DNA from: Nemertoderma westbladi
Lineage: Eukaryota > Animalia > Xenacoelomorpha
NCBI GenBank assembly: GCA_032718475.1
Contig: JAUCBJ010007565.1
Location: 1-35,273, forward strand
Length of the DNA stretch: 35,273 nt
Direction: 5' to 3'
Made by a program: the position numbers and the translations under genes
Notes under the pieces: model-generated
What the model was told of the DNA's origin: nothing
Seen by the model: only the letters and a program-made list of their open reading frames with translations
Databases searched by the model: none
Part shown: piece by piece, positions 1 through 32,549 of the stretch
Numbering within the stretch: position 1 is the stretch's first letter
Layout: every line of letters starts with the position of its first letter

Positions 1-475
1 GCTATAAACCTGAATGATGACGCGTATGCTGATGAAAATGAAATGATGCGCACCATGGTGCTGCGCTTATAACCAATGATGATAGCCGGGGGGCTATAAA
101 CCCAATGATGATGTGGAAATAAATAAATGTGAAATAAATGGTGGAACTAAATGTGTTGAAATATATGTGGAAATAAATGAAATGAAATGAAATAATAATG
201 AAATGAAAAAAGAAAAAAAAGGTATAAAAGAGGTCAAAGAAAAGAATTGGAAAAAAAGGACAAAAAAGTCATAAAAAACTGGTTGGATATTATGTATAGC
301 TATAGTAACTGTAAATGCTGAATGTATTAGCAATAAGATGATAGATGCCTATATAGCAATGTTATTGAATAAACTGAATTAAATAAAAAACTGAATTATT
401 CTGCTATCGCTATAGTTTCAGACTTTCTGGACTTATAATTAACTGACCTAATTTGTAACGGATATAATCGTAAAT

Positions 476-3076
476 ATGGACCCAAATCGCCAAATTATCG
501 GCGAATTACGTAACACGGTAGATCTACTGGAATATTCGCAACCCGGATCCCCTGACTTTGATACGAATTGGAGCACCCTACTAAATGAGAACGTGCGAGT
601 CATTAAATTCACCGGGCGAGAGGGACCAGATTCTAAGAATCTACGAGCCCTCCGGTTAGCCGATGCTAGTACGAGACTGAAAAGAACTCGGAACGCAAAG
701 GCAACCGGAGGGGACGATTCGTCGTTTTGGGAAACGTTCCGGCAGAGCGTCTACAGATCCCGATGTTTGATCTACGACAACGAGGGAAACGCGACGCCCA
801 CCTCGAAAGCGATTACGTTGGCGAGATGTCAAAGTTTCGTCGACGACAAGAGTACGTACCTCGCCCACTGGGGAAACCTGTCGGAGTGTACGGCGACGCT
901 TCGAGAGGAACGCGTATCGATTATCCAAAACCGCGACGACTACCAGGAAAAGTACGGGGCGAAAGAATACGGTCGATCCTTAGTCGTCGTCCTCGGAACC
1001 CTGGACGGTTTGGTACTGGTGTGCCGAATATTCCCGACACCCAGACAGGAAGTGCAGGCAGCCGGAGCGATCTGGTTGCTGCCTCCGGAAATCCAAAAGA
1101 TCCTCTTCGACTTCGACGTCATTAAAATCGGGTCGGATATCAAGGCGGACGTCCGGAACGACTACGCGAACGCTCCCGCAGGAAGAAACCGACGAAACGA
1201 CCTCAACGCACTTAGCCATTGCATCGACACTCAAACGCTACTAGCCTGGTTACGATTCGCCGAGTTCATGCGAGGATTCCAAGAGGTGAGACCGACGAAA
1301 TCCGGGATCGGCTACCTCGCTGTGCTAAACGGCGGTATCGACTTCAAACCCCAGAAATTCCGGGATTATAATAAAATATACGGTGGATACCCGGGATTGG
1401 AAATAAAGAGCGAGCGAGAGGGTCGATGGAAGGACGTTGATCGGAAATGGACGATACACCAAAGATGGGAGAATCCCGATCGACGGAACTACGTTTACGT
1501 CGTTATGGAATGCTACACCGTCGCTAAGTTTATCTGTAAAACTCTCGATAACCTTATTACGGCGGTCCCCCTTTCCTTCGTCGACTACGACTGGAATGAG
1601 GTTATAAACCACGCGTTTAAAGCGGTCGAGAACATTACACCGGGAGAATCGAAAACGCCCGCCGTTATCGATTCCTGGGACGAGAGCGGACCTTACGACA
1701 TCCCTACGATTACCGAACTTCTCGGTGCGGAGGAGCCTCTGATCTCCTCGGAAGGGGAAGAGATATGGCTAAACGAGGGTGTTCTACTCTCCACCCCGAA
1801 GCGACAACTCGAGCCGGAGGCCGCGTATGGACCGGCCGCCAAACGGGTTGCCTCGGCCGAACCGATGAAGAGAGCAGGCGTCTACACCCCACGCGGCTCC
1901 GGTAGCCCCGCGAGAGAGGTAGCCACTACAGCCGCATTGAGCGACTTCGGCGACATATGCCAACGGTTATCCCAGTATCCTTTCCCGGGCGGCGAAGATT
2001 GGTCGTCGGAGATTCCGAGTACCAGCCAACAACGGACCCGCTCAGCGATACTGGTCGAGGAAGGCCCCAGCGATGCGCCGACACCCGACGATCTCCTCGG
2101 TATCCCTCCGTCGAAAACCCCGGCACCCCTTCGCCGACCAGCGGTGGCTACTACACCCGCCGTTCCTCAGGACCCTATGCGACTAACCCGTTGGTACGCC
2201 GAGCAAACTGAATGGATCCACCGCCAGAAACGGTCGTCCGAGTTGAGACCATCGGGACATAAAGAGGGTTATCGGAGCGAGAACATACTACGCAAAAGCC
2301 TAGCATTCCGCGGGCTACCGACCACCGAGAATATTCCGAAGAGCGACCGACGACTCGAATACTACGCCGGCGTCCCGATTCCGATATTCCCCGGTCGAGA
2401 GATGCAGTTGGAGGTATGCGGCGACTGCGGTTCGGAGCAGTGCCCACGCAGCAGAAGGAATCGGGTTACCGATTCTTGCCTCCAGCTCCTCGGGATACTC
2501 TATTGCCCATACTGCGCGATATCGGGCCACGACGTTTCGGTCTGTCCGATCCTTTATAACCTCTGCACCACGTGCGGTTTCCGTGGACATTCCGCTAGCC
2601 CCCGCTGCTATATTAAATGTCCAACCAAAGACGTTACCGCTATGGGCAATACGGTCATGTTTGAGACATACGCAAACAGCCATTTAAAGACCAAGTTTCG
2701 GAGAAACGCTCGGAATATCGCGCAGGAGATGGCGTGCGGATATTTCTCCTTCCCGGAACGCCTCCACACGTCGGCCTCGCTACCCTTCCATTACGTGGAT
2801 CTGCTACTGAGCGCCGGATTATTCGGTCCATTCGAAGTTATTAGACGATTATATTCGTATAAAGAGGAGTTCGGTGACGGAGAATGGTTCCTAGAGGCAC
2901 GCAACTCCGAGTTGGAAAGACGAACCGACATGATCCCGATGCCTTCGAAAGGAAGAGCCGCCAGGAGACAAGCTGAAGCGTTACTCACGATGGATGTTGA
3001 CGCTCCCCTACCAGCCATAGCGATCGATGAGAGTCGACGGGCGAAGAGACGAAAGGCGTACCAGAAAAAGAAATAA
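476..3076 (+). CDS. 866-aa protein: N-terminal DEDD(y)/WRN-RNase D-like 3'-5' exonuclease domain, Pro/acidic linker, Cys-rich region with two CCHC zinc knuckles, basic NLS-like C-terminus
   Basis: ExoI-like CLIYDNEG (D101,E103). WRN-exo-like LPPEIQKILFDFDVIKIGSDIKAD (D225), then CIDTQTL and SGIGYLA. ExoIII-like YVVME (Y341,E345). CPYCAISGHDVSVC = CX2CX4HX4C (aa 677-690); CTTCGFRGHSASPRC = CX2CX4HX5C (aa 697-711). Ends RRAKRRKAYQKKK. Confidence 0.8.
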   Translation: MDPNRQIIGELRNTVDLLEYSQPGSPDFDTNWSTLLNENVRVIKFTGREGPDSKNLRALRLADASTRLKRTRNAKATGGDDSSFWETFRQSVYRSRCLIYDNEGNATPTSKAITLARCQSFVDDKSTYLAHWGNLSECTATLREERVSIIQNRDDYQEKYGAKEYGRSLVVVLGTLDGLVLVCRIFPTPRQEVQAAGAIWLLPPEIQKILFDFDVIKIGSDIKADVRNDYANAPAGRNRRNDLNALSHCIDTQTLLAWLRFAEFMRGFQEVRPTKSGIGYLAVLNGGIDFKPQKFRDYNKIYGGYPGLEIKSEREGRWKDVDRKWTIHQRWENPDRRNYVYVVMECYTVAKFICKTLDNLITAVPLSFVDYDWNEVINHAFKAVENITPGESKTPAVIDSWDESGPYDIPTITELLGAEEPLISSEGEEIWLNEGVLLSTPKRQLEPEAAYGPAAKRVASAEPMKRAGVYTPRGSGSPAREVATTAALSDFGDICQRLSQYPFPGGEDWSSEIPSTSQQRTRSAILVEEGPSDAPTPDDLLGIPPSKTPAPLRRPAVATTPAVPQDPMRLTRWYAEQTEWIHRQKRSSELRPSGHKEGYRSENILRKSLAFRGLPTTENIPKSDRRLEYYAGVPIPIFPGREMQLEVCGDCGSEQCPRSRRNRVTDSCLQLLGILYCPYCAISGHDVSVCPILYNLCTTCGFRGHSASPRCYIKCPTKDVTAMGNTVMFETYANSHLKTKFRRNARNIAQEMACGYFSFPERLHTSASLPFHYVDLLLSAGLFGPFEVIRRLYSYKEEFGDGEWFLEARNSELERRTDMIPMPSKGRAARRQAEALLTMDVDAPLPAIAIDESRRAKRRKAYQKKK

Positions 3077-3232
3077 TGGATTGGGATATTCCAGGAATAT
3101 TTATCGAACATTTATTTTTATACAAACTCTAGGTCAAATTAATTAAAACTATGCAATATTAAATTTGGGATTTTTTATATTGGGAATGACCTACGCAAAC
3201 TCAATCGACCGACAGACTTCACGAAGGTCATT

Positions 3233-3241
3233 GGGGGGGAC
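3233..3241 (+). promoter_or_regulatory. Polypurine tract (plus-strand priming site) of the LTR element
   Basis: GGGGGGGAC directly upstream of the TGTT LTR start. Confidence 0.65.
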
Positions 3242-4848
3242 TGTTCGCGGTATTTCAACTTTCCATAACGCGAGTTGAATATTTTTGTATTTATTTAAAA
3301 TTGATTATTCCGATATTACTACTGGGTGCGGGACCATGGGTTTTGGGCACATTCAATAAACTGGGGGCGATTTATGGGCGAACTTTGGGGCAACTTACAG
3401 GGTACGGGAATAATTTCATAGTTATAAGGGCCAGGGGGGATGGAAAATGCAAGCAGTATTCAGGTTAGCCTGAGTACTATTAGGCCCTGGCCAACTTCCT
3501 GCTGCCTGTAGGGGTGGATTTGGTAATGCGCCAGGCCTAAAGGACAAGGACTGCCCTTAGCGGTCCCTGGCCAACGGCAGCTACTACGAGACTGAAAAGA
3601 ACTCGGAACGCTGACTGCTTGTGTCAGGGATTTGCGACGGGCACCGACGGCCCCTTAGTAGCCAAGCCGTTCTGGTTCTCGATGATCGAACCCCGGGGTT
3701 CGTGAGGGGTGGAGCGGACACGCGAACAGGTGGCCAACTAACGACTGCCCCCTGACCTAAGCCGTACTGGTTCTCGATGACCGATCCCTTCGGGGTTCGT
3801 GAGGGGTGGGACGGACATGCGAAAGGGCTGGCCACAGGACTGGTTTGACAAGGACTGCCCTTAGCGGTCTCGGGTCAACGGCAGCTACTACGAGCCTGAA
3901 AAGAACTCGGAACGCTGACTGCTTGACTGGGATTTGCGACGGGAACCGACGACAGACCCCTTAGCCAAGCCGTTCTGGTTCTCGATGATCGTTCCCTTCG
4001 GGGTTCGTGAGGGGTGGAACGGACACGCGATGGGGTCGAAAGACAAAGGACTAGACTCGACTAGACTCTACTGGCCTACCGACTGTTCGGAGCAGTTTCT
4101 CGGCTGCCGAAGCGACTACGAGCCTGAAACGGACTCGGAAAGCCTAGGTGGTTGGGTTTCTGTGATGAACTGACGGACCCCTAGCCAAGCCGTTCTGGTT
4201 CTCGATGATCGAACCCTTCGGGGTTCGTGAGGGGTGGAACGGACACGCGAACGGGTCCACCGACACGACAGACTCCTAGCCAAGCCGTACTGGTTCTCGA
4301 TGACCGAACCCTTCGGGGTTCGAGAGGGGTGGTACGGATACGCGACAGAGTCTACCGACTGGACCGACCCTTAGCCAAGCCGTGCTGGTTCTCGATGATC
4401 GTTCCCTTCGGGGTTCGTGAGGGGTGGAACGGACACGCGACAGGGTCGACCGACACCGACACTACGGCACTAAGACTGGGACCGAGGGAAAATCTGGGGA
4501 ACATTAGGTAGGCTAAAATTCTGAGCGAACAGTGGGTTATTAAATAATATACCGTAGGGATTTATATTATCGTGTATAATTATTGTGAATATTTGGTGTA
4601 TAATGATTTGGGGAAGCCCAAAATTATTCTTAATCAGGGTTCAATATTGTTAACAAGGTTCAACAGAGTTCAGTTACATTAAAGAGTATATCCAACTAAT
4701 GCAGCTTTTTCTCAACCGCAACCCTGCATCTCAGAAAACATTCCCTCCCCACAATCAATATCCGGTGACTGGCCGGGGCTCGGTGGTCTGTAAAGTCACG
4801 TCTCCAGCATCGGCGTTTTTCCCCCCTGGTGTTGGGATAACGGCAACA
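3242..4848 (+). repeat. Putative 3' LTR (~1607 bp)
   Basis: Starts TGTTCGCG and ends CGGCAACA (TGTT/AACA terminal inverted repeat). AT-rich TATA-like region at ~4540-4605 and ATTAAA at 4678-4683 ahead of the end. The partner LTR is not in the window, so the right boundary is tentative. Confidence 0.6.
3543..4448 (+). ncRNA. Array of cis structured-RNA modules in the LTR, order B-A-A-B-A-B-A-A-A (A = K-turn/UUCG hairpin; B = GAAA/loop-E-like hairpin)
   Basis: A copies: 3649-3735, 3747-3828, 3955-4037, 4175-4258, 4270-4353, 4365-4448, with compensatory changes in stems. B cores: 3580-3611, ~3884-3915, ~4112-4143. The B-A block is duplicated at a 304-bp offset (3543 vs 3847). Confidence 0.7.
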
Positions 4849-4857
4849 TATTAGGTA

Positions 4858-4897
4858 AATAATTAATACAATTAATAATAATAATAATAATAATAAT
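4858..4897. repeat. (AAT)n microsatellite
   Basis: Imperfect then perfect AAT run. Confidence 0.85.
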
Positions 4898-5821
4898 AGA
4901 ATAGGCCAACAGGCAGAAGTTGGAAGTAATACTGTAATATATAGGAACAATATATAGAAGAACAATAAGTAGCCTACAAGCTGGTTATATGTAATGGCAA
5001 AATATTGTGTTAGGGAATTAAATAAAAAGTTTATTGATATATAATGTATTGAAGGTACTGTATTTATTAAAACGTTTTCAACTATTTTACATTAATTTTC
5101 AAATGGGAGCGACCAAGCTTGAAAATATATTGTTCATTCACCGCGATTTTGGAGCCAACCCCCCACCCCCCCCCACCCCTCAGCTACGCCACTGACAGTT
5201 ACAAATAGATTTATTTATTGTTTAAATCAAGTGAAATTAATCCATTAAGCTTATCATCCTCGTGCTCTTGACAGGGCCTGTTGGGATATACGGTTAAAAA
5301 AACGCAATAATTTTTTGTTGTCTGTTTAAATCCTTTTTTTGTCCTTTTTTTTACTTTTTATGTCCTCCAGAAATCTACCGTTGGGTTCCTTGCTACCGCG
5401 GTTTATCTACTGCTGTTCTCTTAGGCTATAAGTACCGGTATTAGTATATATCAGTATATAGAGCATTATTTTGCAGTATTGCATTGTATGTAGGTATAAA
5501 GCATATGCCTTATAAATAATTATACTTTCTGACTGTATTATACTTCATTACAGCATTAGGTACTGACTCGCTGATTCTGTGATATGTACAGTTGTAAATA
5601 TGATAGGCGAGGCCCAATTGAGGAATTGTGATAAAGTAGTCCAAGTCGTTTTGTTTTATTCACTGTTCAACTTTCTCCTGTTTTTATTATGTGCAGTTTT
5701 GTTTATACGCTTCTATGACAGCGGTGTCTCCACACCCACATAATATAATAATAATAATGATAAAGGTAATTTATTAATTACGGTAATTTCAGAATTTTAG
5801 TACCGGTACCGGTTTTACATA

Positions 5822-8747: not shown

Positions 8748-10498
8748 CGCATAACATAAAAATATCGAGTGGTGAAAAATTGCCAGAGTTAAAATACTGG
8801 TATCAAGAGTGAAAAGATCGGGAGTAAAAATATCGAGAGTAAAAATATCGAGAGTAAAAATATCGCGAGTAAAATATAGAGAGGGAAAATATCGAGAGTG
8901 AAAATATCGGGAGTAAAAATATCGAGAGTAAAAATATCGAGAGTAAAAATATCGCGAGTAAAATATAGAGAGGGAAAATATCGAGAGTGAAAATATCGGG
9001 AGTAAAAATATCGAGAGTAAAAAATATCGAGTGTTGAAAAATATCAAGAATGAAAATATCGGGCTGTCGGGAGTAAAAATATCGGGCTGTTGGGAGTAAA
9101 AATATCGGGAGTAAAAATATCGAGAATGAAAATATCGGGAGTAAAAATATCGAGAATGAAAATATCGGGAGTAAAAATATCGTGAGTAAAAAATATTGAG
9201 TGTTGAAAAATATCAAGAGTGAAAATATCGGGCTGTCGGGAGTAAAAATATCGGGCTGCCAGGAGTAAAAATATCGGGAGTAAAAATATCGAGAATGAAA
9301 ATATCGGGAGTAAAAATATCGAGAGTAAAAATATCGAGAGTAAAAATATCGGGAGTAAAAATATCGAGAGTGAAAATATCGAGAATGAAAATATCGGGAG
9401 TAAAAATATCGAGAGTAAAAATATTAAGAGTGAAAATATCGGGAGTAAAAATATCGGGAGTAAAAATATCGAGAGTAAAAATATCAAGAGTGAAAATATC
9501 GGGAGTAAAAATATCGGGAGTAAAAATATCAAGAGTGAAAATATCGGGATTAAAAATATCAGGAGTAAAAATATTGAGAGTGAAAATATCGGGAGTAAAA
9601 ATATCGGGAGTAAAAATATCGGGAGTAAAAATATCGAGACTAAAAATATCAAGAGTGAAAATATCGGGAGTAAAAATATCGGGAATAAAAATATCGAGAC
9701 TAAAAATATCAAGAGTGAAAATATCGGCAGTAAAAATATCGGGAGTAAAAATATCGAGAGTAAAAATATCGGGAGTAAAAATATCGAGACTAAAAATATC
9801 AAGAGTGAAAATATCGGGAGTAAAAATATCGGGAGTAAAAATATCGGGAGTAAAATATCGAGAGTAAAAATATCGCGAGTAAAAATATCGCGAGTAAAAA
9901 TATCGAGAGTAAAAAATATCGAGAGTAAAAATATCGAGAGTAAAAATATCAAGAGTGAAAATATAGAGAGTAAAAATATCGAGAGTAACAATATTTTTAA
10001 TAAGGGATGTATGATAACTTTTTTCCTTAAAATATTCTAGAACAAAAAAATGTGTTCTAGAACAAAAATATTTATCAAAATTGATAGCTAGCACATATTC
10101 TATAATATCTATTAAAAAAATAGCAAAATCTAGGTACGGTAGTATAACAAATATGGTCAATCGGTGGGTACTCAAGGTTTATTAAATGCCATTTATTTGG
10201 ACTTCTCTGATGTACCACATGCACTGCAAAATTGTGCCATAATTCTAAATAAAATGCTCACAATATTTTTACTCTCGATATTTCCACTCTCGATATTTTT
10301 CAACACTCTATATTTTTCAACACTCTATATTTTTCAACACTCTATATTTTTCAACACTCTATATTTTTCAACACTCTATATTTTTCAACACTCTATATTT
10401 TTCAACACTCTATATTTTTCAACACTCTATATTTTTCAACACTCTATATTTTACAACACTCGATATTTTTCAACACTCAATATTTTTTAATATAACCG
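8748..10498. mobile_element. Foldback-like non-autonomous element with arms built from tandem repeats in opposite orientation
   Basis: Left arm (~8757-9995) is ~15-bp GAGTAAAAATATC(G/R) units with occasional GAGTGTTGAAAAATATC. Right arm (~10260-10490) is reverse-complement units (TATTTTTACTCTCGA, then ~19-bp TATATTTTTCAACACTCTA). Outer ends are similar when inverted. No TSD recognised. Confidence 0.6.
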
Positions 10499-12724: not shown

Positions 12725-12883
12725 CGTCCAATGCGGGGCCATCGGTCCACGCTACCTCGTCCTGGCACGACGTCCGTCAACCCGCCACACAACAGAACGC
12801 CGTCGAACCAATCGAACCAATCTCCTACGTGATCAGCGATGACGCCTACTACCAAAGCATCAGCGACACGTATCGGCATCTGG
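12725..12883 (+). CDS. Coding exon 3 of transmembrane adaptor
   Basis: Branch-like TGACTAAT ~20 nt upstream, acceptor GACAG|, donor TGG|GTACGG; phase 1/1. Encodes ...SYVISDDAYYQSISDTYRHL. Confidence 0.75.
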
Positions 12884-14865
12884 GTACGGCCAAGGGCGAG
12901 GGGAAGGTTAACAACATACCATCCAATCGTGAGAAAGGTGTGTAACCGTCCGTACTGGGTACGGCCAAGGGCGAGGGGAAGGTTAACAACATAGCAGCCA
13001 ATCGTGAGAAAGGTGTGTACCCGTCCGTACTGGGTACGGCCAAGGGCGAGGGGAAGGTTAACAACATACCAGCCAATCGTGAGAAAGGTGTGTACCCGTC
13101 CGTACTGGGTGCGGCCAAGGGCGAGGGGAAGGTTAACAACATACCATCCAATCGTGAGAAAGGTGTGTACCCGTCCGTACTGGGTGTGGCCAAGGGCGAG
13201 GGGAAGGTTAACAACATACCATCCAATCGTGAGAAAGGTGTGTACCCGTCCGTACTGGGTACGGCAAAGGGCGAGGGGAAGGCTAACAACATACCAGCCA
13301 ATCGTGAGAAAGGTGTGTACCCGTCCGTACTGGGTGCGGCCAAGGGCGAGGGGAAGGTTAACAACATACCAGCCAATCGTGAGAAAGGTGTGTACCCGTC
13401 CGTACTGGGTACGGCCAAGGGCGAGGGGAAGGTTAACAACATACCATCCAATCGTGAGAAAGGTGTGTACCCGTCCGTACTGGGTACGGCAAAGGGCGAG
13501 GGGAAGGCTAACAACATACCAGCCAATCGTGAGAAAGGTGTGTACCCGTCCGTACTGGGTGCGGCCAAGGGCGAGGGGAAGGTTAACAACATACCAGCCA
13601 ATCGTGAGAAAGGTGTGTACCCGACCGTACTGGGTACGGCCAAGGGCGAGGGGAAGGTTAACAACATAGCAGCCAATCGTGAGAAAGGTGTGTAACCGTC
13701 CGTACTGGGTACGGCCAAGGGCGAGGGGAAGGTTAACAACATAGCAGCCAATCGTGAGAAAGGTGTGTACCCGTCCGTACTGGGTGCGGCCAAGGGCGAG
13801 GGGAAGGTTAACAACATAGCAGCCAATCGTGAGAAAGGTGTGTACCCGACCGTACTGGGTACGGCCAAGGGCGAGGGGAAAGTTAACAACATAGCAGCCA
13901 ATCGTGAGAAAGGTGTGTACCCGACCGTACTGGGTACGGCCAAGGGCGAGGGGAAGGTTAACAACATAGCAGCCAATCGTGAGAAAGGTGTGTAACCGTC
14001 CGTACTGGGTACGGCCAAGGGCGAGGGGAAGGTTAACAACATACCAGCCAATCGTGAGAAAGGTGTGTACCCGACCGTACTGGGTACGGCCAAGGGCGAG
14101 GGGAAGGTTAACAACATAGCAGCCAATCGTGAGAAAGGTGTGTAACCGTCCGTACTGGGTACGGCCAAGGGCGAGGGGAAGGTTAACAACATAGCAGCCA
14201 ATCGTGAGAAAGGTGTGTACCCGTCCGTACTGGGTGCGGCCAAGGGCGAGGGGAAGGTTAACAACATAGCAGCCAATCGTGAGAAAGGTGTGTACCCGAC
14301 CGTACTGGGTACGGCCAAGGGCGAGGGGAAAGTTAACAACATAGCAGCCAATCGTGAGAAAGGTGTGTAACCGTCCGTACTGGGTACGGCCAAGGGCGAG
14401 GGGAAGGTTAACAACATAGCAGCCAATCGTGAGAAAGGTGTGTACCCGACCGTACTGGGTACGGCCAAGGGCGAGGGGAAGGCTAACAACATACCAGCCA
14501 ATCGTGAGAAAGGTGTGTAACCGTCCGTACTGGGTACGGCCAAGGGCGAGGGGAAGGTTAACAACATACCAGCCAATCGTGAGAAAGGTGTGTAACCGTC
14601 CGTACTGGGTGTGGCCAAGGGCGAGGGGAAGGCTAACAACATAGCAGCCAATCGTGAGAAAGGTGTGTAACCGTCCCTACTGGGTGCGGCCAAGGGCGAG
14701 GGGAAGGCTAACAATATACCAGCCAATCGTGAGAAAGGTGTGTAACCGTCCGTACTGGGTGCGGCCAAGGGCGAGGGGAAGGCTAACAATATACCAGCCA
14801 ATCGTGAGAAAGGTGTGTAACCGTCCGTACTGGGTGCGGCCAAGGGCGAGGGGAAGGTTAACAAC
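12880..14865. repeat. 75-bp satellite, left block (~26 copies)
   Basis: Unit CTGGGTACGGCCAAGGGCGAGGGGAAGGTTAACAACATACCAGCCAATCGTGAGAAAGGTGTGTACCCGTCCGTA. Confidence 0.97.
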
Positions 14866-15020
14866 TCTGTCTCTGGAAAAATCTAAAAAGAAACAAGGAA
14901 AAATACAAAAAGTAAAGGCCAATACCAAAGTTTCACCCTCAAACTCACCTCCAAAGGATAAACCTGTCATTTCAGCTATTACACCCAATAACTTAAAAGA
15001 AAATACATAAACCAGCTCTG

Positions 15021-16079
15021 ATGATCCCCGACTCGCCTGTTAAAACTTCAGTTCCACACCCACATAACTTGGATGATGTCATGTATAGTGCATACACTTG
15101 GCAGAAACCTGCACAAACCTATAAACCTCAACATGGGCAGATACAGGGATCAGTGGGTATTAAATTACAAAATAGATTCAAGCCTCTAGAAATAGATAAT
15201 GAATGGGAATCACAGGTTGCTACACTGCTCAAAGAACAGAATCTGCTCCTCCATAACATACTAGGACACTCGTTGATATCTGCCTCACAGAGTACACCAT
15301 CTCAAGGAGAAGGGACGAATGGAAATTCTAAAGGAGCTCCTCAGGATCACAATATAAGAATAGATGCCCATAGCAGACTTAATGAACACACTTCCTCAAA
15401 GAGACTCACTTCAGACACAGGGAAACGCTCTGACCCTTCTGATAACTATGAAGCATACAATTATTGGTCAAACTCTGAAGATTCTACTAAAAATCTAGAG
15501 GCTTACAACTACTACTTTAATCTTGAAAACTTAAATACTAGTAGACCTAAAAGATCAAATGAACATACCTGTAATAAAGCTAATCAGTATTATATGAATC
15601 ATGAAGATCCAGTTCGAAATCTAGAAGCTTACAACCACTACTTAAATTCTGAAAGTTGTTTATTACCAGGTAGAGGGGGAATCTTGACACAAGTGGGGGA
15701 TACAAAATCTATCCAGACATCTACAACAAATCATCAGCAGGAATTGAAATTAGTCACAGTCTTAGTCAGAGGTCTTCCTACAAATACCTCATCCTTTGGA
15801 CTATCACAATTTTGCTTTAAGCAAACCGGACATAGACCTTTAAATGTAATGATAATTGGTTCCAAGGGCACAATCAAAAATGCAAAAATAACCATTGAAA
15901 AGACCTATCTCCCAATGTTTTTGCGGCAAGATATGTGGCCTAATCTCTCTCTAAGTGTTATACCTGCGCACCTAAATCAAGGAAATAAATATATGAAACA
16001 ACTGCACTATAATGGTGGATGGCAGACACATGCAAACTATTACTATTATCCAAAGCCACAACCAAGGCAGTGGTTTTAA
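15021..16079 (+). CDS. LINE ORF1 (probably C-terminal part), with RRM-like C-terminal domain
   Basis: LQNRFKPL motif. VLVRGLPTNTS...AKITI...DMWP resembles the RRM-like 'WP' domain of RTE-X/CR1-group ORF1s. Overlaps ORF2 start by 68 bp. Confidence 0.7.
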   Translation: MIPDSPVKTSVPHPHNLDDVMYSAYTWQKPAQTYKPQHGQIQGSVGIKLQNRFKPLEIDNEWESQVATLLKEQNLLLHNILGHSLISASQSTPSQGEGTNGNSKGAPQDHNIRIDAHSRLNEHTSSKRLTSDTGKRSDPSDNYEAYNYWSNSEDSTKNLEAYNYYFNLENLNTSRPKRSNEHTCNKANQYYMNHEDPVRNLEAYNHYLNSESCLLPGRGGILTQVGDTKSIQTSTTNHQQELKLVTVLVRGLPTNTSSFGLSQFCFKQTGHRPLNVMIIGSKGTIKNAKITIEKTYLPMFLRQDMWPNLSLSVIPAHLNQGNKYMKQLHYNGGWQTHANYYYYPKPQPRQWF

Positions 16080-19000
16080 GCAGACTTCAAAATACTGTGC
16101 AGTAGTGAATGAAGGTCAAGTTTTACATGCTCATAAATATGAAACTAAATCTAGTACTGGATTCTTAAAAATAGAAACTTTTAATTGCAAGGGTTTTATC
16201 AGAAATAAATCATATATCATACAAAGATTGAATACTGAGAAACCAGATGTTCTGATGTTACAAGAACACTGGCTTGGGCCTAGACAAGCTGACTTTTTCT
16301 TCAAGAGACAGTCTCTACATAAAGAATATACATGTGTTGATTACACAATCTCATCAGAGATGCTTAAACCCAAGCGGCGGATACGGGGAGAAGGGGGAAC
16401 GGTTATATATATAAAAAATAACCTACAAGTATTTTGCAGTCCTTTAAACTTAAACTCTGAACGTTTAACTGGTATTAGAATTGCTGGAGCTTTTGATAGA
16501 GACTTGGCAATAATCAATATATATCTCCCTTCAGATTGCAACAGACCTGAAGATAAAAATAATTATTTTCTTACCACTACTCACCTGGCTACTGTCATTG
16601 AAGAATGTCAGGCAGCTGGTTTGGGTATAATCATAGGAGGTGATATTAATGGGTCACTTAAAGCAGATATTTTTCATCCCAGAGGATCTAGAAGTTATTC
16701 ACATTTTGGACATATTTTTAACAATGTCATATTGAGAAATTATGACTTTACAGTTGCTGACATGTGTATAAAGGCATCTGGTCCAATGTCTACATACACC
16801 TTCAATAACAAATTTGGAGATATCATTCGTGAGAGTTACATTGATCACATATTAGTTGGAAATGAAATGTATGAAAATATCCGAGAGTCACTTGTACTAG
16901 AACATGATGAGAAAAACCTCTCTGATCATAGGCCAGTAAAGATACTCCTCCAATATAAAAAGACTCTCCAAGTGGAAGACAATCTACTACGATCTCGAAT
17001 TAAACAAACTAAATTTGATTTCAAAAAGGCAACAAATGTACAGAAGGTTGCTTACAGAGAGGAAATCCGAGGAAAGCTTGAATCTGTAAATCACAATGTA
17101 ACTTTAGATGAGAAAGTGAATATCCTAACAAATACTATAAACGAAGCATCCAAAAACAATATTCCTAGATTTTACTGGAAACCAAAAACTCATTTGAAAT
17201 ATCGCAAAAACTTAAAGGTGACTGGAAAACGTAGCACAAATTACTCAAAAGACTACCAAGACTATCAACAACATATAAGAGATATTATTGCAACAAACAG
17301 GCATGATCCGAAACTTTTCTGGAAAAATATTAAGCCAGTAAAAGACAACTTCATTGTTCCAAATCCTACATTACTATATCACGAAGTTAAAACACAATTC
17401 AACAACTGTATGCAACACAATGAAGATCCATCACTTCATACACCTGATCCCACATGTAGTAATTCAAAGCCCGAGCTGGGGAAGACAGTCAAAGATGACT
17501 GTTCAACGAAGACAAACCCAAATAATATAACCCCAACAGAAATTGAATCCAATATAAAGGACCTTAACCGGCAGAAGGCAGCTGATATCAACAATATCAT
17601 CTCAGAATCTTTATTTTATGGCCTATCCGATACACTTACGGGTTTCATTGCAGATATTTTCAATGAGATTAACCGCAAAGGGAAAACCCCTCTTTCCTTC
17701 TCAACTAGTATAATATTTCCTGTTCCTAAACCAGCCAAGAAGAACTCTGTAATACAAAATTCAACACGATTTCGAAATATAAGTATTATCACTGTTTTGG
17801 CAAAATTATGGGAGCGAACTATCATTAAAGAGCTTGAATGTCTGACTCTAAATGAACTCCAGCTTGGTTATAGAAAAGGCATAGGCAGTGAAACTGCTTA
17901 TTTATTGGCATCCCAGCTAATTCGAAAGTTTAACAAGAAAAACTCAAAAATATATGCCTTATCTCTTGATATGTCGGCTGCATTCGATAAAGTTAGCTAC
18001 ACTATGCTTTTTGACAAACTGAGACAGTCAAAATTAAATGGCAACATTGTTGATGCTATAGAGACATACTATAGAAATTCGGTCGCATATTTGAATTGTA
18101 ATGGATATTGTTATGCAGAGCCGATTGCCTTGTGTCAAGGTGTGCGACAAGGTGGAGTCCTATCCCCACTACTATTCAACTATTACATGACGGATTTAAT
18201 TACTGAAATAGTGGAGAGCGGCCTAGGAGTTCACATAGCAAGGGAATCTTTTGCCATTTTAACATATGCAGATGATGTACTGCTGCTTGCTACACTTAAA
18301 TCAGATTTACAGGAAATGCTGCAATTATCGAGCTGCTTCCTCGAGAAACACAACATGAAATTGAACTTCTCAAAATGTCACTTTCTATCCATAGAAACAG
18401 ATGGCAGGTGTTCTACTAATGATAGCATAACCTTCTGCGGTAAAGTAGTAGATGCGGCTGATGGTTGTTTTTATATGGGTATCCCGCTACCTTCACATCG
18501 GAATAGGCTCAAAGATCATCTCAACACCAAAGTCTGGTCTAACCTTTCTATGTTAAAAAATCGGGGTCTAACTGTGGATCAAATAACGCTTAAAATCTCC
18601 AGCTTAGTTTGGCGTATGATATGTCTACCCTCTATATCATATGGGGCCCTAGCCTTATCCAACAATGAACTGACTGAAGTTGCAAGCAGCTGTAGGTCTG
18701 CCATGAGGGATATTATACACTTAAAGAGCTACATGCCAAATGCAGTGTTAGCTCAACTTTTTGAGATTGATGTGGAAAGTCACCTACGACTTACTAACTT
18801 TCGAGGACTATATAATACATTTAACACCTCCAATAAAAAGATATCTTCTTTCTTTGGGTCTTTACTGTGTGACCACTGGACAGACGAGGATAATAAAGAC
18901 TCAATTTTTACTCTTTATCAGATGTCCAGCTGGTATCATGACTTGCCACCACTGAATTCACTAGCTGTGCATAATTACTCCCCTCAACACTGCATACAAA

Positions 19001-19152
19001 AACGGAAGAAAGAGTTGCAGCACCAAATCACTGATCGTGATATGTTCCTCACGCTGATTAATCTATCTCTCCTCAACAGGCCAGACATACCTATGTCACT
19101 GAGAAAGGAGGTTTTGCAAGAGACTAATAAGATGGTCTTGGTGGGCTTATAA
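16012..19152 (+). CDS. LINE ORF2: apurinic-type endonuclease + reverse transcriptase, 1046 aa, uninterrupted
   Basis: EN motifs TFNCKG, LQEHW, NIYLP, GGDIN, IDHI, SDHRP. RT motifs FRNISI, QLGYRKG, LDMSAAFDKV, GVRQGGVLSPLLFN, YADD. Confidence 0.96.
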   Translation: MVDGRHMQTITIIQSHNQGSGFKQTSKYCAVVNEGQVLHAHKYETKSSTGFLKIETFNCKGFIRNKSYIIQRLNTEKPDVLMLQEHWLGPRQADFFFKRQSLHKEYTCVDYTISSEMLKPKRRIRGEGGTVIYIKNNLQVFCSPLNLNSERLTGIRIAGAFDRDLAIINIYLPSDCNRPEDKNNYFLTTTHLATVIEECQAAGLGIIIGGDINGSLKADIFHPRGSRSYSHFGHIFNNVILRNYDFTVADMCIKASGPMSTYTFNNKFGDIIRESYIDHILVGNEMYENIRESLVLEHDEKNLSDHRPVKILLQYKKTLQVEDNLLRSRIKQTKFDFKKATNVQKVAYREEIRGKLESVNHNVTLDEKVNILTNTINEASKNNIPRFYWKPKTHLKYRKNLKVTGKRSTNYSKDYQDYQQHIRDIIATNRHDPKLFWKNIKPVKDNFIVPNPTLLYHEVKTQFNNCMQHNEDPSLHTPDPTCSNSKPELGKTVKDDCSTKTNPNNITPTEIESNIKDLNRQKAADINNIISESLFYGLSDTLTGFIADIFNEINRKGKTPLSFSTSIIFPVPKPAKKNSVIQNSTRFRNISIITVLAKLWERTIIKELECLTLNELQLGYRKGIGSETAYLLASQLIRKFNKKNSKIYALSLDMSAAFDKVSYTMLFDKLRQSKLNGNIVDAIETYYRNSVAYLNCNGYCYAEPIALCQGVRQGGVLSPLLFNYYMTDLITEIVESGLGVHIARESFAILTYADDVLLLATLKSDLQEMLQLSSCFLEKHNMKLNFSKCHFLSIETDGRCSTNDSITFCGKVVDAADGCFYMGIPLPSHRNRLKDHLNTKVWSNLSMLKNRGLTVDQITLKISSLVWRMICLPSISYGALALSNNELTEVASSCRSAMRDIIHLKSYMPNAVLAQLFEIDVESHLRLTNFRGLYNTFNTSNKKISSFFGSLLCDHWTDEDNKDSIFTLYQMSSWYHDLPPLNSLAVHNYSPQHCIQKRKKELQHQITDRDMFLTLINLSLLNRPDIPMSLRKEVLQETNKMVLVGL

Positions 19153-19706: not shown

Positions 19707-20822
19707 TAACAACATAGCAGCCAATCGTGAGAAAGGTGTGTAACCGTCCGTACTGGGTGCGGCCAAGGGCGAGGGGAAGGCTAACAACATACCAGCCAAT
19801 CGTGAGAAAGGTGTGTAACCGTCCGTACTGGGTACGGCCAAGGGCGAGGGGAAGGCTAACAACATACCGGCCAATCGTGAGAAAGGTGTGTACCCGTCCG
19901 TACTGGGTGCGGCCAAGGGCGAGGGGAAGGCTAACAACATACCGGCCAATCGTGAGAAAGGTGTGTACCCGACCGTACTGGGTACGACCAAGGGCGAGGG
20001 GAAGGTTAACAACATACCAGCCAATCGTGAGAAAGGTGTGTACCGGTCCGTACTGGGTACGGCCAAGGGCGAGGGGAAGGTTAACAACATACCAGCCAAT
20101 CGTGAGAAAGGTGTGTAACCGTCCGTACTGGGTACGGCCAAGGGCGAGGGGAAGGTTAACAACATACCAGCCAATCGTGAGAAAGGTGTGTGTGTACCCG
20201 TCCGTACTGGGTACGGCCAAGGGCGAGGGGAAGGCTAACAACATACCAGCCAATCGTGAGAAAGGTGTGTGTGTACCCGTCCGTACTGGGTGCGGCCAAG
20301 GGCGAGGGGAAGGTTAACAACATACCAGCCAATCGTGAGAAAGGTGTGTAACCGTCCGTACTGGGTGCGGCCAAGGGCGAGGGGAAGGCTAACAACATAG
20401 CAGCCAATCGTGAGAAAGGTGTGTGTGTACCCGTCCGTACTGGGTGCGGCCAAGGGCGAGGGGAAGGTTAACAACATACCAGCCAATCGTGAGAAAGGTG
20501 TGTACCCGTCCGTACTGGGTACGGCCAAGGGCGAGGGGAAGGTTAACAACATAGCAGCCAATCGTGAGAAAGGTGTGTACCCGACCGTACTGGGTACGGC
20601 CAAGGGCGAGGGGAAGGCTAACAACATAGCAGCCAATCGTGAGAAAGGTGTGTAGCCGTCCGTACTGGGTGCGGCCAAGGGCGAGGGGAAGGTTAACAAC
20701 ATAGCAGCCAATCGTGAGAAAGGTGTGTAACCGTCCGTACTGGGTGCGGCCAAGGGCGAGGGGAAGGCTAACAACATAGCAGCCAATCGTGAGAAAGGTG
20801 TGTAACCGTCCGTACTGGGTGT
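19707..20822. repeat. 75-bp satellite, right block (~15 copies)
   Basis: Same unit as the left block, resuming in register; three units carry a +4 bp GT expansion. Confidence 0.97.
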
Positions 20823-23210: not shown

Positions 23211-23735
23211 ATGTCTTGGTGACTGTAGAAGGTGAACACTGTTTAACTGAGATGCCGAAATATTGTCCACATTTTGTTGCAAACTTTAGAGACGCTCGGT
23301 TTACTAGATAGTGTAGTTTATTTATTCTTCCCACGACAATTTAGTTAAAAATATTTAATTAAAATATTATTAAAATAATATTAAAATATTATTATTTCTA
23401 TTAATAACGTATGCGTTGCGTAGCGTATTGCCATTACGGTAAACCGTAAACGTAACACAGTTGTATATTATGTAGTTTACCGGTATCAGTTTGCAGACAG
23501 CACTGTGTGCTGCAGAGCTCGGGCTGGAAAGTAGATTGAAGTCCATGCACGGGCACGCCGCACTCGTCTGCTTTGTTCTTGATGGTGTGCTATGTTGGTC
23601 CGAGTTTCATTATAGAAATACTGTAAAATACTGTAGGCCTACTACCGGTACATGTATAGGCTATTCGTTATAATTTTTTTGCTACGGAGTATCTCAAATC
23701 AGGAGTTTACGGCGTAATATTAATTAGCCTCGGCG

Positions 23736-24674
23736 ATGGGTAGCAAAGTTTTCGAAGAATTCGCATTGGGGGCCTCTTCGGGCTGCTCGGCGTGTCTGTT
23801 CTCCAACCCGCTGGACGTGGTAAAGACGCGGATGCAGCTGCAAGGCGAGCTGCTGGCCCGGGGTACCTACGTGCGTCCGTACCGCAACGTTCTACACGCT
23901 ATGTCGACTATAGGGAAGGTAGACGGGTTGTTAGCGCTGCAGAAAGGGTTGGTTCCCGCGCTGAGCTACCAATTCGTTATGAACGGAGTTCGAATCGGGG
24001 TCTATCAGAACTCTAAGAACGCAGGTCTCCTGTCTACCTCCGAGGGGGACTACAGTGTCTGGCGGAACTTCCTGGGTGGGTCTATATCCGGGTTGCTAGG
24101 GGCTACATGCGCTAGTCCCTTCTATCTGATGAAGACTCAGTTACAGAGTCGTTCTGCGGATAGCATCGCGGTGGGGCACCAACACTCGCACCGGGGAATG
24201 ATTGCGGGGTTGCGCGATGTGTACCGCAGAGAGGGGTTGCGGGGCTGGTGGAGGGGGGTGACCGCCGCCCAGGCTCGGGTATTCGTCGGCTCGGGGGCGC
24301 AACTAGGCTCCTTCGCTCTCTTTAAGGAGTATCTACCTCGAACTCGCGCCTCCAATCTGGATAAGACGTCGCTTAGGGTCGTGTCCGCGGGTTGTTCCGG
24401 TATATTCGTCGTGTGTTGTATGACCCCGATGGATGTGTGCTCCACTCGGATGTACAACCAGCCAACCACCGCCGCCGGTAAGGGGGTCTATTACAGCAAT
24501 CTAGTGGACTGTATAGTGAAGATATTAACCAAGGAAGGGCCTCTCGCCTTCTATAAGGGGATATCGGCCTCTTTGTTCAGGTTGTGGCCCCACACCGTGT
24601 TACATCTGACTTTCTGGGACACTTTCCGAGAATATTATTTATCTTACGTTAAGCTGAAACAGGAGAAAGTCTAG
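23736..24674 (+). CDS. SLC25A35: Mitochondrial carrier, SLC25A34/35 subfamily (yeast Oac1-like), coding region intronless, 312 aa
   Basis: Three carrier repeats with signatures PLDVVKTRMQLQGEL, PFYLMKTQLQ, PMDVCSTRMYNQP; SIAVGHQH and LQKGLVPAL are typical of SLC25A35; AATAAA signals at ~24878-25065. Confidence 0.92.
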   Translation: MGSKVFEEFALGASSGCSACLFSNPLDVVKTRMQLQGELLARGTYVRPYRNVLHAMSTIGKVDGLLALQKGLVPALSYQFVMNGVRIGVYQNSKNAGLLSTSEGDYSVWRNFLGGSISGLLGATCASPFYLMKTQLQSRSADSIAVGHQHSHRGMIAGLRDVYRREGLRGWWRGVTAAQARVFVGSGAQLGSFALFKEYLPRTRASNLDKTSLRVVSAGCSGIFVVCCMTPMDVCSTRMYNQPTTAAGKGVYYSNLVDCIVKILTKEGPLAFYKGISASLFRLWPHTVLHLTFWDTFREYYLSYVKLKQEKV

Positions 24675-26349: not shown

Positions 26350-29300
26350 GTTATCTGAGTAATGTAACAATGTATGTTATCTGAGTAATGTAACAATGTA
26401 TGTTATCTGAGTAATGTAACAATGTATGTTATCTGAGTAATGTAACAATGTATGTTATCTGAGTAATGTAACAATGTATGTTATCTGAGTAATGTAACAA
26501 TGTATGTTATCTGAGTAATGTAACAATGTATGTTATCTGAGTAATGTAACAATGTATGTTATCTGAGTAATGTAACAATGTATGTTATCTGAGTAATGTA
26601 ACAATGTATGTTATCTGAGTAGTGTAACAATGTATGTTATCTGAGTAATGTAACAATGTATGTTATCTGAGTAATGTAACAATGTATGTTATCTGAGTAG
26701 TGTAACAATGTATGTTATCTGAGTAATGTAACAATGTATGTTATCTGAGTAATGTAACAATGTATGTTATCTGAGTAATGTAACAATGTATGTTATCTGA
26801 GTAATGTAACAATGTATGTTATCTGAGTAATGTAACAATGTATGTTATCTGAGTAGTGTAACAATGTATGTTATCTGAGTAATGTAACAATGTATGTTAT
26901 CTGAGTAATGTAACAATGTATGTTATCTGAGTAGTGTAACAATGTATGTTATCTGAGTAATGTAACAATGTATGTTATCTGAGTAATGTAACAATGTATG
27001 TTATCTGAGTAATGTAACAATGTATGTTATCTGAGTAATGTAACAATGTATGTTATCTGAGTAATGTAACAATGTATGTTATCTGAGTAATGTAACAATG
27101 TATGTTATCTGAGTAATGTAACAATGTATGCTTATCTGAGTAATGTAACAATGTATGTTATCTGAGTAATGTAACAATGTATGTTATCTGAGTAATGTAA
27201 CAATGTATGTTATCTGAGTAATGTAACAATGTATGTTATCTGAGTAATGTAACAATGTATGTTATCTGAGTAATGTAACAATGTATGTTATCTGAGTAGT
27301 GTAACAATGTATGTTATCTGAGTAATGTAACAATGTATGTTATCTGAGTAGTGTAACAATGTATGTTATCTGAGTAATGTAACAATGTATGTTATCTGAG
27401 TAATGTAACAATGTATGTTATCTGAGTAATGTAACAATGTATGTTATCTGAGTAGTGTAACAATGTATGTTATCTGAGTAATGTAACAATGTATGTTATC
27501 TGAGTAATGTAACAATGTATGTTATCTGAGTAATGTAACAATGTATGTTATCTGAGTAATGTAACAATGTATGTTATCTGAGTAGTGTAACAATGTATGT
27601 TATCTGAGTAATGTAACAATGTATGTTATCTGAGTAATGTAACAATGTATGTTATCTGAGTAATGTAACAATGTATGTTATCTGAGTAATGTAACAATGT
27701 ATGTTATCTGAGTAATGTAACAATGTATGTTATCTGAGTAATGTAACAATGTATGTTATCTGAGTAATGTAACAATGTATGCTATCTGAGTAATGTAACA
27801 ATGTATGTTATCTGAGTAATGTAACAATGTATGTTATCTGAGTAATGTAACAATGTATGTTATCTGAGTAGTGTAACAATGTATGTTATCTGAGTAATGT
27901 AACAATGTATGTTATCTGAGTAATGTAACAATGTATGCTATCTGAGTAATGTAACAATGTATGTTATCTGAGTAATGTAACAATGTATGTTATCTGAGTA
28001 ATGTAACAATGTATGTTATCTGAGTAATGTAACAATGTATGTTATCTGAGTAATGTAACAATGTATGTTATCTGAGTAATGTAACAATGTATGTTATCTG
28101 AGTAATGTAACAATGTATGTTATCTGAGTAATGTAACAATGTATGTTATCTGAGTAATGTAACAATGTATGCTATCTGAGTAATGTAACAATGTATGTTA
28201 TCTGAGTAATGTAACAATGTATGTTATCTGAGTAATGTAACAATGTATGTTATCTGAGTAATGTAACAATGTATGTTATCTGAGTAATGTAACAATGTAT
28301 GTTATCTGAGTAATGTAACAATGTATGCTATCTGAGTAATGTAACAATGTATGTTATCTGAGTAATGTAACAATGTATGTTATCTGAGTAATGTAACAAT
28401 GTATGTTATCTGAGTAATGTAACAATGTATGTTATCTGAGTAATGTAACAATGTATGTTATCTGAGTAATGTAACAATGTATGTTATCTGAGTAGTGTAA
28501 CAATGTATGTTATCTGAGTAATGTAACAATGTATGTTATCTGAGTAATGTAACAATGTATGCTATCTGAGTAATGTAACAATGTATGTTATCTGAGTAAT
28601 GTAACAATGTATGTTATCTGAGTAATGTAACAATGTATGTTATCTGAGTAATGTAACAATGTATGTTATCTGAGTAATGTAACAATGTATGTTATCTGAG
28701 TAATGTAACAATGTATGTTATCTGAGTAATGTAACAATGTATGTTATCTGAGTAATGTAACAATGTATGTTATCTGAGTAATGTAACAATGTATGTTATC
28801 TGAGTAATGTAACAATGTATGTTATCTGAGTAATGTAACAATGTATGTTATCTGAGTAATGTAACAATGTATGTTATCTGAGTAATGTAACAATGTATGT
28901 TATCTGAGTAATGTAACAATGTATGTTATCTGAGTAATGTAACAATGTATGTTATCTGAGTAATGTAACAATGTATGTTATCTGAGTAATGTAACAATGT
29001 ATGTTATCTGAGTAATGTAACAATGTATGTTATCTGAGTAATGTAACAATGTATGTTATCTGAGTAATGTAACAATGTATGTTATCTGAGTAATGTAACA
29101 ATGTATGTTATCTGAGTAATGTAACAATGTATGTTATCTGAGTAATGTAACAATGTATGTTATCTGAGTAATGTAACAATGTATGTTATCTGAGTAATGT
29201 AACAATGTATGTTATCTGAGTAATGTAACAATGTATGTTATCTGAGTAATGTAACAATGTATGTTATCTGAGTAATGTAACAATGTATGTTATCTGAGTA

Positions 29301-30004
29301 ATGTAACAATGTATGTTATCTGAGTAATGTAACAATGTAGGTTATCTGAGTAATGTAACAATGTATGTTATCTGAGTAATGTAACAATGTATGCTATCTG
29401 AGTAATGTAACAATGTATCTTATCTGAGTAATGTAACAATGTATCTTATCTGAGTAATGTAACAATGTATGTTATCTGAGTAATGTAACAATGTATGTTA
29501 TCTGAGTAATGTAACAATGTATGTTATCTGAGTAATGTAACAATGTATCTGAGTAATGTAACAATGTATCTGAGTAATGTAACAATGTATGCTATCTGAG
29601 TAATGTAACAATGTATGTTATCTGAGTAATGTAACAATGTATGTTATCTGAGTAATGTAACAATGTATCTGAGTAATGTAACAATGTATGCTATCTGAGT
29701 AATGTAACAATGTATGTTATCTGAGTAATGTAACAATGTATGTTATCTGAGTAATGTAACAATGTATGTTATCTGAGTAATGTAACAATGTATGTTATCT
29801 GAGTAATGTAACAATGTATGTTATCTGAGTAATGTAACAATGTATGTTATCTGAGTAATGTAACAATGTATGCTATCTGAGTAATGTAACAATGTATCTG
29901 AGTAATGTAACAATGTATGTTATCTGAGTAATGTAACAATGTATGTTATCTGAGTAATGTAACAATGTATGCTATCTGAGTAATGTAACAATGTATGTTA
30001 TCTG
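26350..30004. repeat. 26-bp satellite, ~140 copies
   Basis: Unit GTTATCTGAGTAATGTAACAATGTAT, highly homogeneous. Confidence 0.98.
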
Positions 30005-30412
30005 GCACAGTATGGCGGCTTTAATAATTCCAAATAATGTAATTCAAACTTGGGGAGGTGGGGGGGGGGGGGGGGGCTGGTTACAAGGCCACATTATTCT
30101 TACGAAAACAAAGAGACGAGAGGCTATATCACGGCGGTTACAGTTGTTTTATTTTTGATAGTAATCAGCTGTTTTGCGTCGAGTTTCACGTGGAGAGGGA
30201 TGAATCCCCACTACATGGTTGGTTGCATTTTATCGAGGGAAAATTATTTGCGTTTATTCAACTGCCGTGTTGTATTTTTTTTAGATATATTCACATACAG
30301 TGTCTCAGATTTGTAAATACAGAACTCGAATTCGTAAGTCTCTCGAAACCGCTCCCGCTAGAGGGCTACATAAGTATTAGACGTCCTCCCATTCCTAAAG
30401 CTGAAACTTAGT

Positions 30413-32397: not shown

Positions 32398-32549
32398 CCA
32401 ACTGCTGGACCCCAGACTGAATTGGACTGCGGTCCCATAGAATAAAACGGAAACCAAACTACGTTACAGCTAGGTACGAAACTATTGCAGTAATTATCCG
32501 TAGTAACTGCTTGGAACTGTTTATAATACAATGACGTTGTGTCTCCTAG

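Follow-up and report, generated by a model that had tools for sequence, protein, structure and literature searches.

We find nine hairpin-forming modules arrayed in an LTR of a high-copy retrotransposon in Nemertoderma westbladi; they belong to two kinds, A and B, and follow one another in the order B-A-A-B-A-B-A-A-A. The window that we analyzed is the whole 35,273-nt contig JAUCBJ010007565.1. A sequence-only reading of this window had noticed six A modules and described them as kink-turn (K-turn) hairpins under selection for RNA structure. The six A modules are there, and that inventory missed the B modules, three in the LTR and one in the upstream open reading frame (ORF). The case for the K-turn is weaker than first claimed, and the array is richer. 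That selection on RNA structure acts on the array we regard as very probable. That the array is a multi-site protein-binding element on the retrotransposon RNA, kept by such selection, we put forward tentatively as the best explanation.

The location in an LTR, proposed in that reading, is borne out. The 3′ LTR (3242-4848, plus strand, 1607 bp) has the termini TGTT...AACA, and a purine-rich, G-rich tract abutting it at 3233-3241 is probably the polypurine tract. When the contigs of four public runs are mapped on positions 1-5400, the summed contig depth, which is not to be equated with copy number, is 13-40k (X1) and 17-32k (X4) over 1-3240, steps up two- to threefold to 57-113k (X1) and 55-124k (X4) over 3241-4860, and falls to 72-340 over 4861-5220. 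X3 is noisier, with depths of 77-490 on the ORF side and 108-832 in the LTR. At least about twice the internal dose and a sharp outer border are clear in X1 and X4, and noisy in X3. Loose contig ends lie near 4825-4848 and diverge right after the AACA at 4848. We place the LTR at 3242-4848 because of these depth steps and diverging ends; an end at 4531, our first guess, is ruled out by the read depth. In X4, the depth of single contig pieces is 5426 within the ORF and only about 15 in the flank, which points to an element present in hundreds of copies or more. The window begins inside this element, so that the second LTR and any gag-pol fall outside it.

The same reading had put the array in the 3′ UTR of the retroelement, which is plausible; the LTR has several TATA and poly(A) candidates that could delimit U3, R and U5 (TATAA at 3423, 4575 and 4599; AATAAA at 3355; ATTAAA at 4539 and 4678). 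Given how LTR elements replicate, the genomic RNA must contain one or more copies of each LTR segment. Two extra hairpins, 3248-3278 and 3452-3478, occur in the 5′ part of the LTR (3242-3545), outside the array. Beyond the LTR, another high-copy repeat starts within 5221-5400, with a depth of 15-30k in X1 and X4.

Just upstream of the LTR, a plus-strand frame of 874 codons is open (452-3076). It encodes an accessory-type protein of 866 aa from its first ATG (476-3076), with a possibly exonuclease-like N-terminus, a Cys/His zinc-knuckle module and a basic tail. Pfam has no match for it. HMMER finds seven distant proteins that share the Cys/His module, all unnamed or "hypothetical", and in five of them (P0002-P0004, P0006 and P0007) the sequence extends far enough for an N-terminal region to be aligned as well. 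The module itself (residues 650-790, window 2390-2890) has the pattern C-x-Y-C-x4-H-x4-C-x2-L-x3-C-x2-C-x2-R-G-H, belongs to no Pfam family and is duplicated in P0003. A DEDD/EXD-type exonuclease-like domain at the N-terminus is a lead only, to which three kinds of comparison point, all of them under their thresholds or close to them. The ORF scores 0.92 to the PF01612 cluster in a feature comparison, a profile search gives an exonuclease match only at E 1.5, and Foldseek, run on a poor model (pLDDT 40; the structure models have pLDDT 34 and 40), puts EXD2 on top at E 0.3. The ExoI signature D-x-E appears as D-V-E in P0002 and P0004 and is absent from the window protein at the aligned place. 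RNA binding would be a fitting role for an inactive exonuclease domain combined with zinc knuckles and a basic tail. Related elements were not reached by way of the protein: word-indexed searches gave no match, and scanning loci with P0007, P0009 and P0001 turned up nothing.

Two other features precede the ORF in the window. Within 223-476, upstream of the ORF ATG, TATAAAAG occurs near 223 and TTTCAG, which resembles an acceptor site, near 420; they possibly mark an internal promoter or a spliced message. Within 9-110, three box C-like ATGATGA motifs occur in the same high-copy element, with CTGA 8 nt after the first; the box C/D snoRNA matches there are all sub-threshold.

The array reads on the plus strand, and we give for each module the z-score of its folding energy. 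It opens with B1 (3552-3643, z -5.6), which has a basal UA-GC/GC-GA motif, a long stem, a predicted loop E motif (ACUA/GAA) and a GAAA-type tip. A1 (3649-3735, z -1.8) has the K-turn sequence, an apical loop short by 2 nt and a weak outer stem, and A2 (3747-3834, z +0.7) is the most degenerate A copy. Then come B2 (3856-3944, z -2.8), A3 (3955-4037, z -3.7) and B3 (4085-4170, z -3.0), the last with a divergent lower stem and a basal GA/GA in place of UA/GA. A4 (4175-4258, z -4.3) is the best copy, with the bulge at 4204-4206 and candidate G·A pairs of 4207-4208 with 4229-4230. A5 (4270-4353, z -3.1) has three compensated pairs relative to A4 and C·A at position 3b·3n, and A6 (4365-4448, z -1.1) closes the array. 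The basal UA-GC/GC-GA motif is common to B1, B2 and five of the A modules. Eight ACCGAC spacers mark module borders on the plus strand (3643-4460, at 3643, 3945, 4078, 4259, 4354, 4363, 4449 and 4455); the minus strand of the LTR has none. The fourth B-type module is inside the ORF (648-712, plus strand), with an AGUA/GAA version of the predicted loop E motif, a GAAA-type tip, and a lower stem of 13 bp that has a sequence of its own.

Members of the family differ at contig joints by in-register loss and gain of modules. One loose end in X4 joins an A-type outer stem to a B-type stem, and the shortest variant seen, a contig of organism B, retains one B and one A. Because module number varies in this way, nine copies are not required.

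Folding energy favors the plus strand over the minus strand in all nine modules, and z is below -2.7 in six of them. This bears on an explanation at the DNA level, in which the repeats are enhancer or factor-binding sites in U3 and the RNA folding is incidental. Tandem repeats in U3 are common, the array may itself be in U3, and a DNA-binding protein could be expected to keep sequence cores invariant. But sense-strand-specific folding with G·U pairs and UUCG loops, and stems that change in compensated fashion, are not expected of DNA sites, and we consider this explanation improbable.

The six A cores start at 3676, 3771, 3979, 4199, 4294 and 4389. A model built from the six copies recovers those six at 90-116 bits, and no other place in the window scores higher than 14 bits; a stretch at 3478-3547 is a weak match (E 0.34). 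The four outer stems quoted earlier as differing in sequence yet still pairing do so, and the change from U-A to A-U in copy 5 is as described. The regularity attributed to the modules was overstated: only copies 4 and 5 show a fully paired apical stem with a UUCG loop. That stem is interrupted by two tandem U·U mismatches in copies 3 and 6 and by one in copy 2, and copy 1 is without two of the loop bases. The middle stem has one mismatch in copies 2 and 6, and the outer stems of A1 and A2 have only 3-4 pairs. Copies 1 and 2 are degenerate, and we count A1, A2 and A6 as decayed. An outer A stem pairs best with its own partner in only three of six rows.

Covariation among the A copies, also claimed in that reading, is found between A4 and A5 and fails to reach significance across all six. 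In a MAFFT alignment of the six, which does not bring the outer stems of copies 1-3 into register, 3 of 27 pairs are changed on both sides, and 76 of 500 column shuffles reach that number. RNAalifold reports a two-sided change in 2 of 25 pairs. Between A4 and A5 there are 11 differences in 84 sites, which include three compensated Watson-Crick pairs, a result obtained in 0.012% of 200,000 random placements (p 1.2e-4). This comparison was picked afterwards from 15 possible ones, so that p is about 2e-3 allowing for the 15, under a null of random placement that does not include templated copying. The corresponding simulation for A4 and A6, run with 9 changes where 8 are observed, is not significant (p 0.09).

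The B modules present a different pattern. All four are built of a long stem, an internal loop of 5x4, a second stem of 4 bp and, at the tip, UGAAA. The tip folds as CU-GAAA-AG, a GAAA tetraloop, in three of the four; we presume that it could also be read as a T-loop. The B cores are 81-97% alike and the stems 40-85%, with most pairs of modules at 40-55%. Even so, the best partner of every 5′ stem is the 3′ stem of the same module, in 4/4 rows and 4/4 columns, and RNAalifold gives a two-sided change in 7 of 21 pairs. In all four modules the 5x4 loop has the order of a loop E motif, A·G, U·A, a bulged base and A·A, the bulged base being G or C. Among the genomic variants listed, the bulged base at 3584 is C or often U. 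Changes at 3582 and at 3608 have equal depth in X3, X4 and X6, and one genomic variant, altered at these two positions, has A·C with C·C. Judged by these bases, the B internal loop is a sarcin-ricin/loop E motif, with a variant like the C-U-A triplet of PSTVd. In PSTVd, loop E has such a triplet variant, and the loop binds RPL5 (PMC6633198, excerpt).

Could all of this arise without selection, by tandem duplication of one hairpin through template switching, with the covariation produced by hairpin-templated copying between the arms? The in-register deletions and duplications among family members and the decayed copies are what such a process would leave; the six-copy column shuffle (76/500) is not significant, and the null for A4 and A5 leaves templated copying out. 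However, the parts that are most conserved are asymmetric loops, which templated copying would erase, and B stems with 40-55% identity in most pairs still pair, although one of these stems has to fit within a coding frame. We give neutral duplication a low probability. The claim of selection on RNA structure is supported by the plus-strand folding and the compensated stems of A4 and A5.

What the A core folds into is a more delicate question. A standard K-turn has a 3-nt bulge followed by G·A and A·G, with C-G at -1 (PMC5061560, excerpt). All six copies have the GAU bulge, then G·A and A·G between the C helix and the NC helix, as well as C-G at -1. The core (10+8 nt) is invariant, with 0 of 18 columns variable against 23 of 24 in the outer flanks. 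The sole K-turn position to vary is 3b·3n, which is U·U in four copies, C·U once and C·A once, and never Watson-Crick. So the earlier description as a canonical K-turn is right as to sequence definition; but a slipped Watson-Crick register, in which CUC pairs with GAG and a 5-nt bulge is left, is 4.0-6.0 kcal/mol more stable. The nearest-neighbor model gives the slipped register dominance in 6/6 copies and the K-turn register less than 1% of the ensemble. A C helix in the K-turn register can form (C-G, U·G, C-G, U·G), 4-6 kcal/mol above the slipped one by an energy model that omits G·A geometry and protein. Being invariant, the core has no covariation by which to tell the two registers apart. 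The change in copy 5 breaks a pair of the slipped register and leaves the K-turn intact.

Because a more stable register competes, the K-turn would need a protein to form. A protein-induced K-turn is the fold we favor for the A core, since the energy model ignores both G·A geometry and protein, and since the copy-5 change breaks a slipped pair only. Box C/D K-turns fold only with protein (PMC5689011, excerpt), and, among K-turns generally, C at 3b favors ion-induced folding while a Watson-Crick 3b·3n pair blocks it (PMC4382518, excerpt).

The GAAA-type tips suggest another architecture, in which the RNA assembles by itself: B tips dock in the basal loop of A modules, K-turns bend the arms, and the RNA is compacted or dimerized for packaging without a dedicated protein. 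The A basal loop does map on the topology of the 11-nt GAAA receptor, having the C-G core pair (C2-G10), the AA platform (A4-A5) and a bulged pyrimidine; the pair and the platform are found in 6/6 copies. Receptor positions 3 and 9 both change to U in A2, A5 has G6·U7, three of four B tips fold as CU-GAAA-AG, and the shortest variant (X6) keeps an A and a B together. The U3·A8 handle, though, is C·A in five of six A copies, and G6 faces C in five of six; U3 and U7 are each present in 1/6 copies and never in the same one, so that no copy has the full receptor. In one study, receptor changes at U3/A8 cost more than 2.5 kcal/mol and G6-C 4.3 kcal/mol (PMC10243134, PMC2275092, excerpts). Membership of the A basal loop in the 11-nt receptor family is ruled out by U3·A8 and G6·U7, and self-assembly as the function of the array seems to us unlikely.

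No Rfam family matches the modules. None reaches gathering scores in the window, and at E up to 10 the regions 3050-4600 and 1-800 give sub-threshold matches only. The A cores have no box C or D, and the best Rfam CD-box match is 13 bits against 55. Pattern scans for related RNAs found 0 in viral contigs and 0 in prokaryote genomes; the two metagenome matches are both chance, lying in bacterial glycosyltransferase regions without blastn or tblastn likeness to the window. In the open-access literature we found no LTR with a K-turn or loop E array; such an array was not found described, while LTR RNA elements as such are known.

Two explanations by known kinds of RNA are affected by these searches. 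One module type might be an undescribed self-cleaving ribozyme or processing signal, like the hammerheads in retrozyme LTRs, a precedent (PMC4918200, excerpt) that the invariant internal loops would fit. But neither a hammerhead nor any other Rfam ribozyme family is found at E up to 10, the LTR has no CUGANGA core, and many cuts would presumably fragment the genomic RNA, all of which makes this very improbable. Or the modules might derive from tRNA or 5S polymerase III units, as in Cassandra LTRs; a relaxed A box is matched by five of six A copies, and the B architecture resembles, we take it, the loop E arm of 5S rRNA. This we find hardly credible, since the modules contain no full A box and no B box, and there is no tRNA and no 5S or tRNA Rfam match at E up to 10.

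The rest of the window is eukaryotic repeat-rich DNA, with a LINE (endonuclease and RT), satellites and a mitochondrial carrier frame. The LINE (14997-19152) has a 360-codon frame and an intact-looking endonuclease-RT frame of 1051 codons. It is flanked by two arrays of one 75-bp unit (12880-14865 and 19707-20821), the first of which is open for ~680 codons in two minus-strand frames. The carrier frame (23724-24674) is intron-less, has three PF00153 repeats, sits amid repeats and is possibly a retrocopy. Two different 26-bp satellites, in 141 and 76 copies, occupy 26350-32404, followed at 32507-33946 by a 479-codon frame with no Pfam match. Minisatellites of 15 bp and 17 bp at 8801-10487 are related in inverted orientation.

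How would a multi-site protein-binding element work? On binding an A module, a host protein of the L7Ae family (15.5K/Snu13 or eL30) would shift the invariant core out of the slipped register and into the K-turn. The B modules would offer the loop E motif and the GAAA-type tip to the ORF product of the element or to a host loop E binder, and the B copy early in the ORF would serve for autoregulation. Once assembled, the particle would promote export, stability or packaging, as RcRE with Rec does in HERV-K. A more ambitious version, which we consider doubtful, takes K-turn, loop E, GNRA tip and receptor-like loop together as a modular RNP scaffold: an L7Ae-family protein would flip A from straight to kinked, the pseudo-nuclease would read B, and the result would be protein-switched control of RNA fate, tunable by module copy number.

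Cis-acting RNA signals of LTR retrotransposons are poorly known beyond a few models. If the proposal is true, a retroelement uses parts like those of ribosomes and snoRNPs to set the fate of its own RNA, and the natural, repeated K-turn/loop E array of so successful an element would be a case of core housekeeping RNA-binding proteins being recruited by a retroelement. Given the copy number, the array could even titrate these proteins. In A and B we would also have two small, new RNA modules, with a possible protein-driven register switch.

By analogy, the closest working counterpart is RcRE in the HERV-K U3, bound by Rec; RxRE and Rex of HTLV are a comparable pair of LTR element and protein. 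As in our element, RcRE is a structured cis element in the LTR (U3), at the RNA 3′ end, with an accessory protein encoded upstream (PMC6916052, excerpt). In our element, by contrast, hairpins of two repeated types, which contain K-turn and loop E sequences, make up a modular array, and the likeness is one of position and of a basic zinc-knuckle ORF alone.

Other LTRs contain structured RNA too, a 5S domain in the Cassandra TRIM and hammerheads in retrozymes (PMC7215508, PMC4918200, excerpts). As these excerpts describe them, they are small non-coding elements with one known RNA family per LTR, whereas our element has a long ORF and, in its LTR, nine modules that fall in no known family. The rotifer LTR retrotransposons Vesta and Juno have a DEDDy ORF3 just upstream of the 3′ LTR, where we see the putatively exonuclease-like ORF; RNA secondary structure has 0 mentions in that paper (PMC5408684). 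The two are likened by position and domain type, but ours is fused to a zinc-knuckle module and its ExoI residues are apparently missing.

The motifs themselves compare with well-studied RNAs. With the K-turns of U4 snRNA and box C/D RNAs the A modules share the 3-nt bulge, G·A and A·G, C-G at -1, U at L3 and, in four of six copies, U·U at 3b·3n (PMC5061560, PMC4382518, excerpts). They differ in having C at 4b where box C has G, in lacking a guide, in being closed by a UUCG hairpin, in the slipped register that competes, and in being six in an array. With loop E of 5S rRNA and PSTVd all four B modules share A·G, U·A, a bulged G or C and the A·A stack (PMC6633198, excerpt). Unlike those loops, they match no Rfam 5S or rRNA family, are repeated, and continue into a 4-bp stem, a further internal loop and a tip of the GAAA type.
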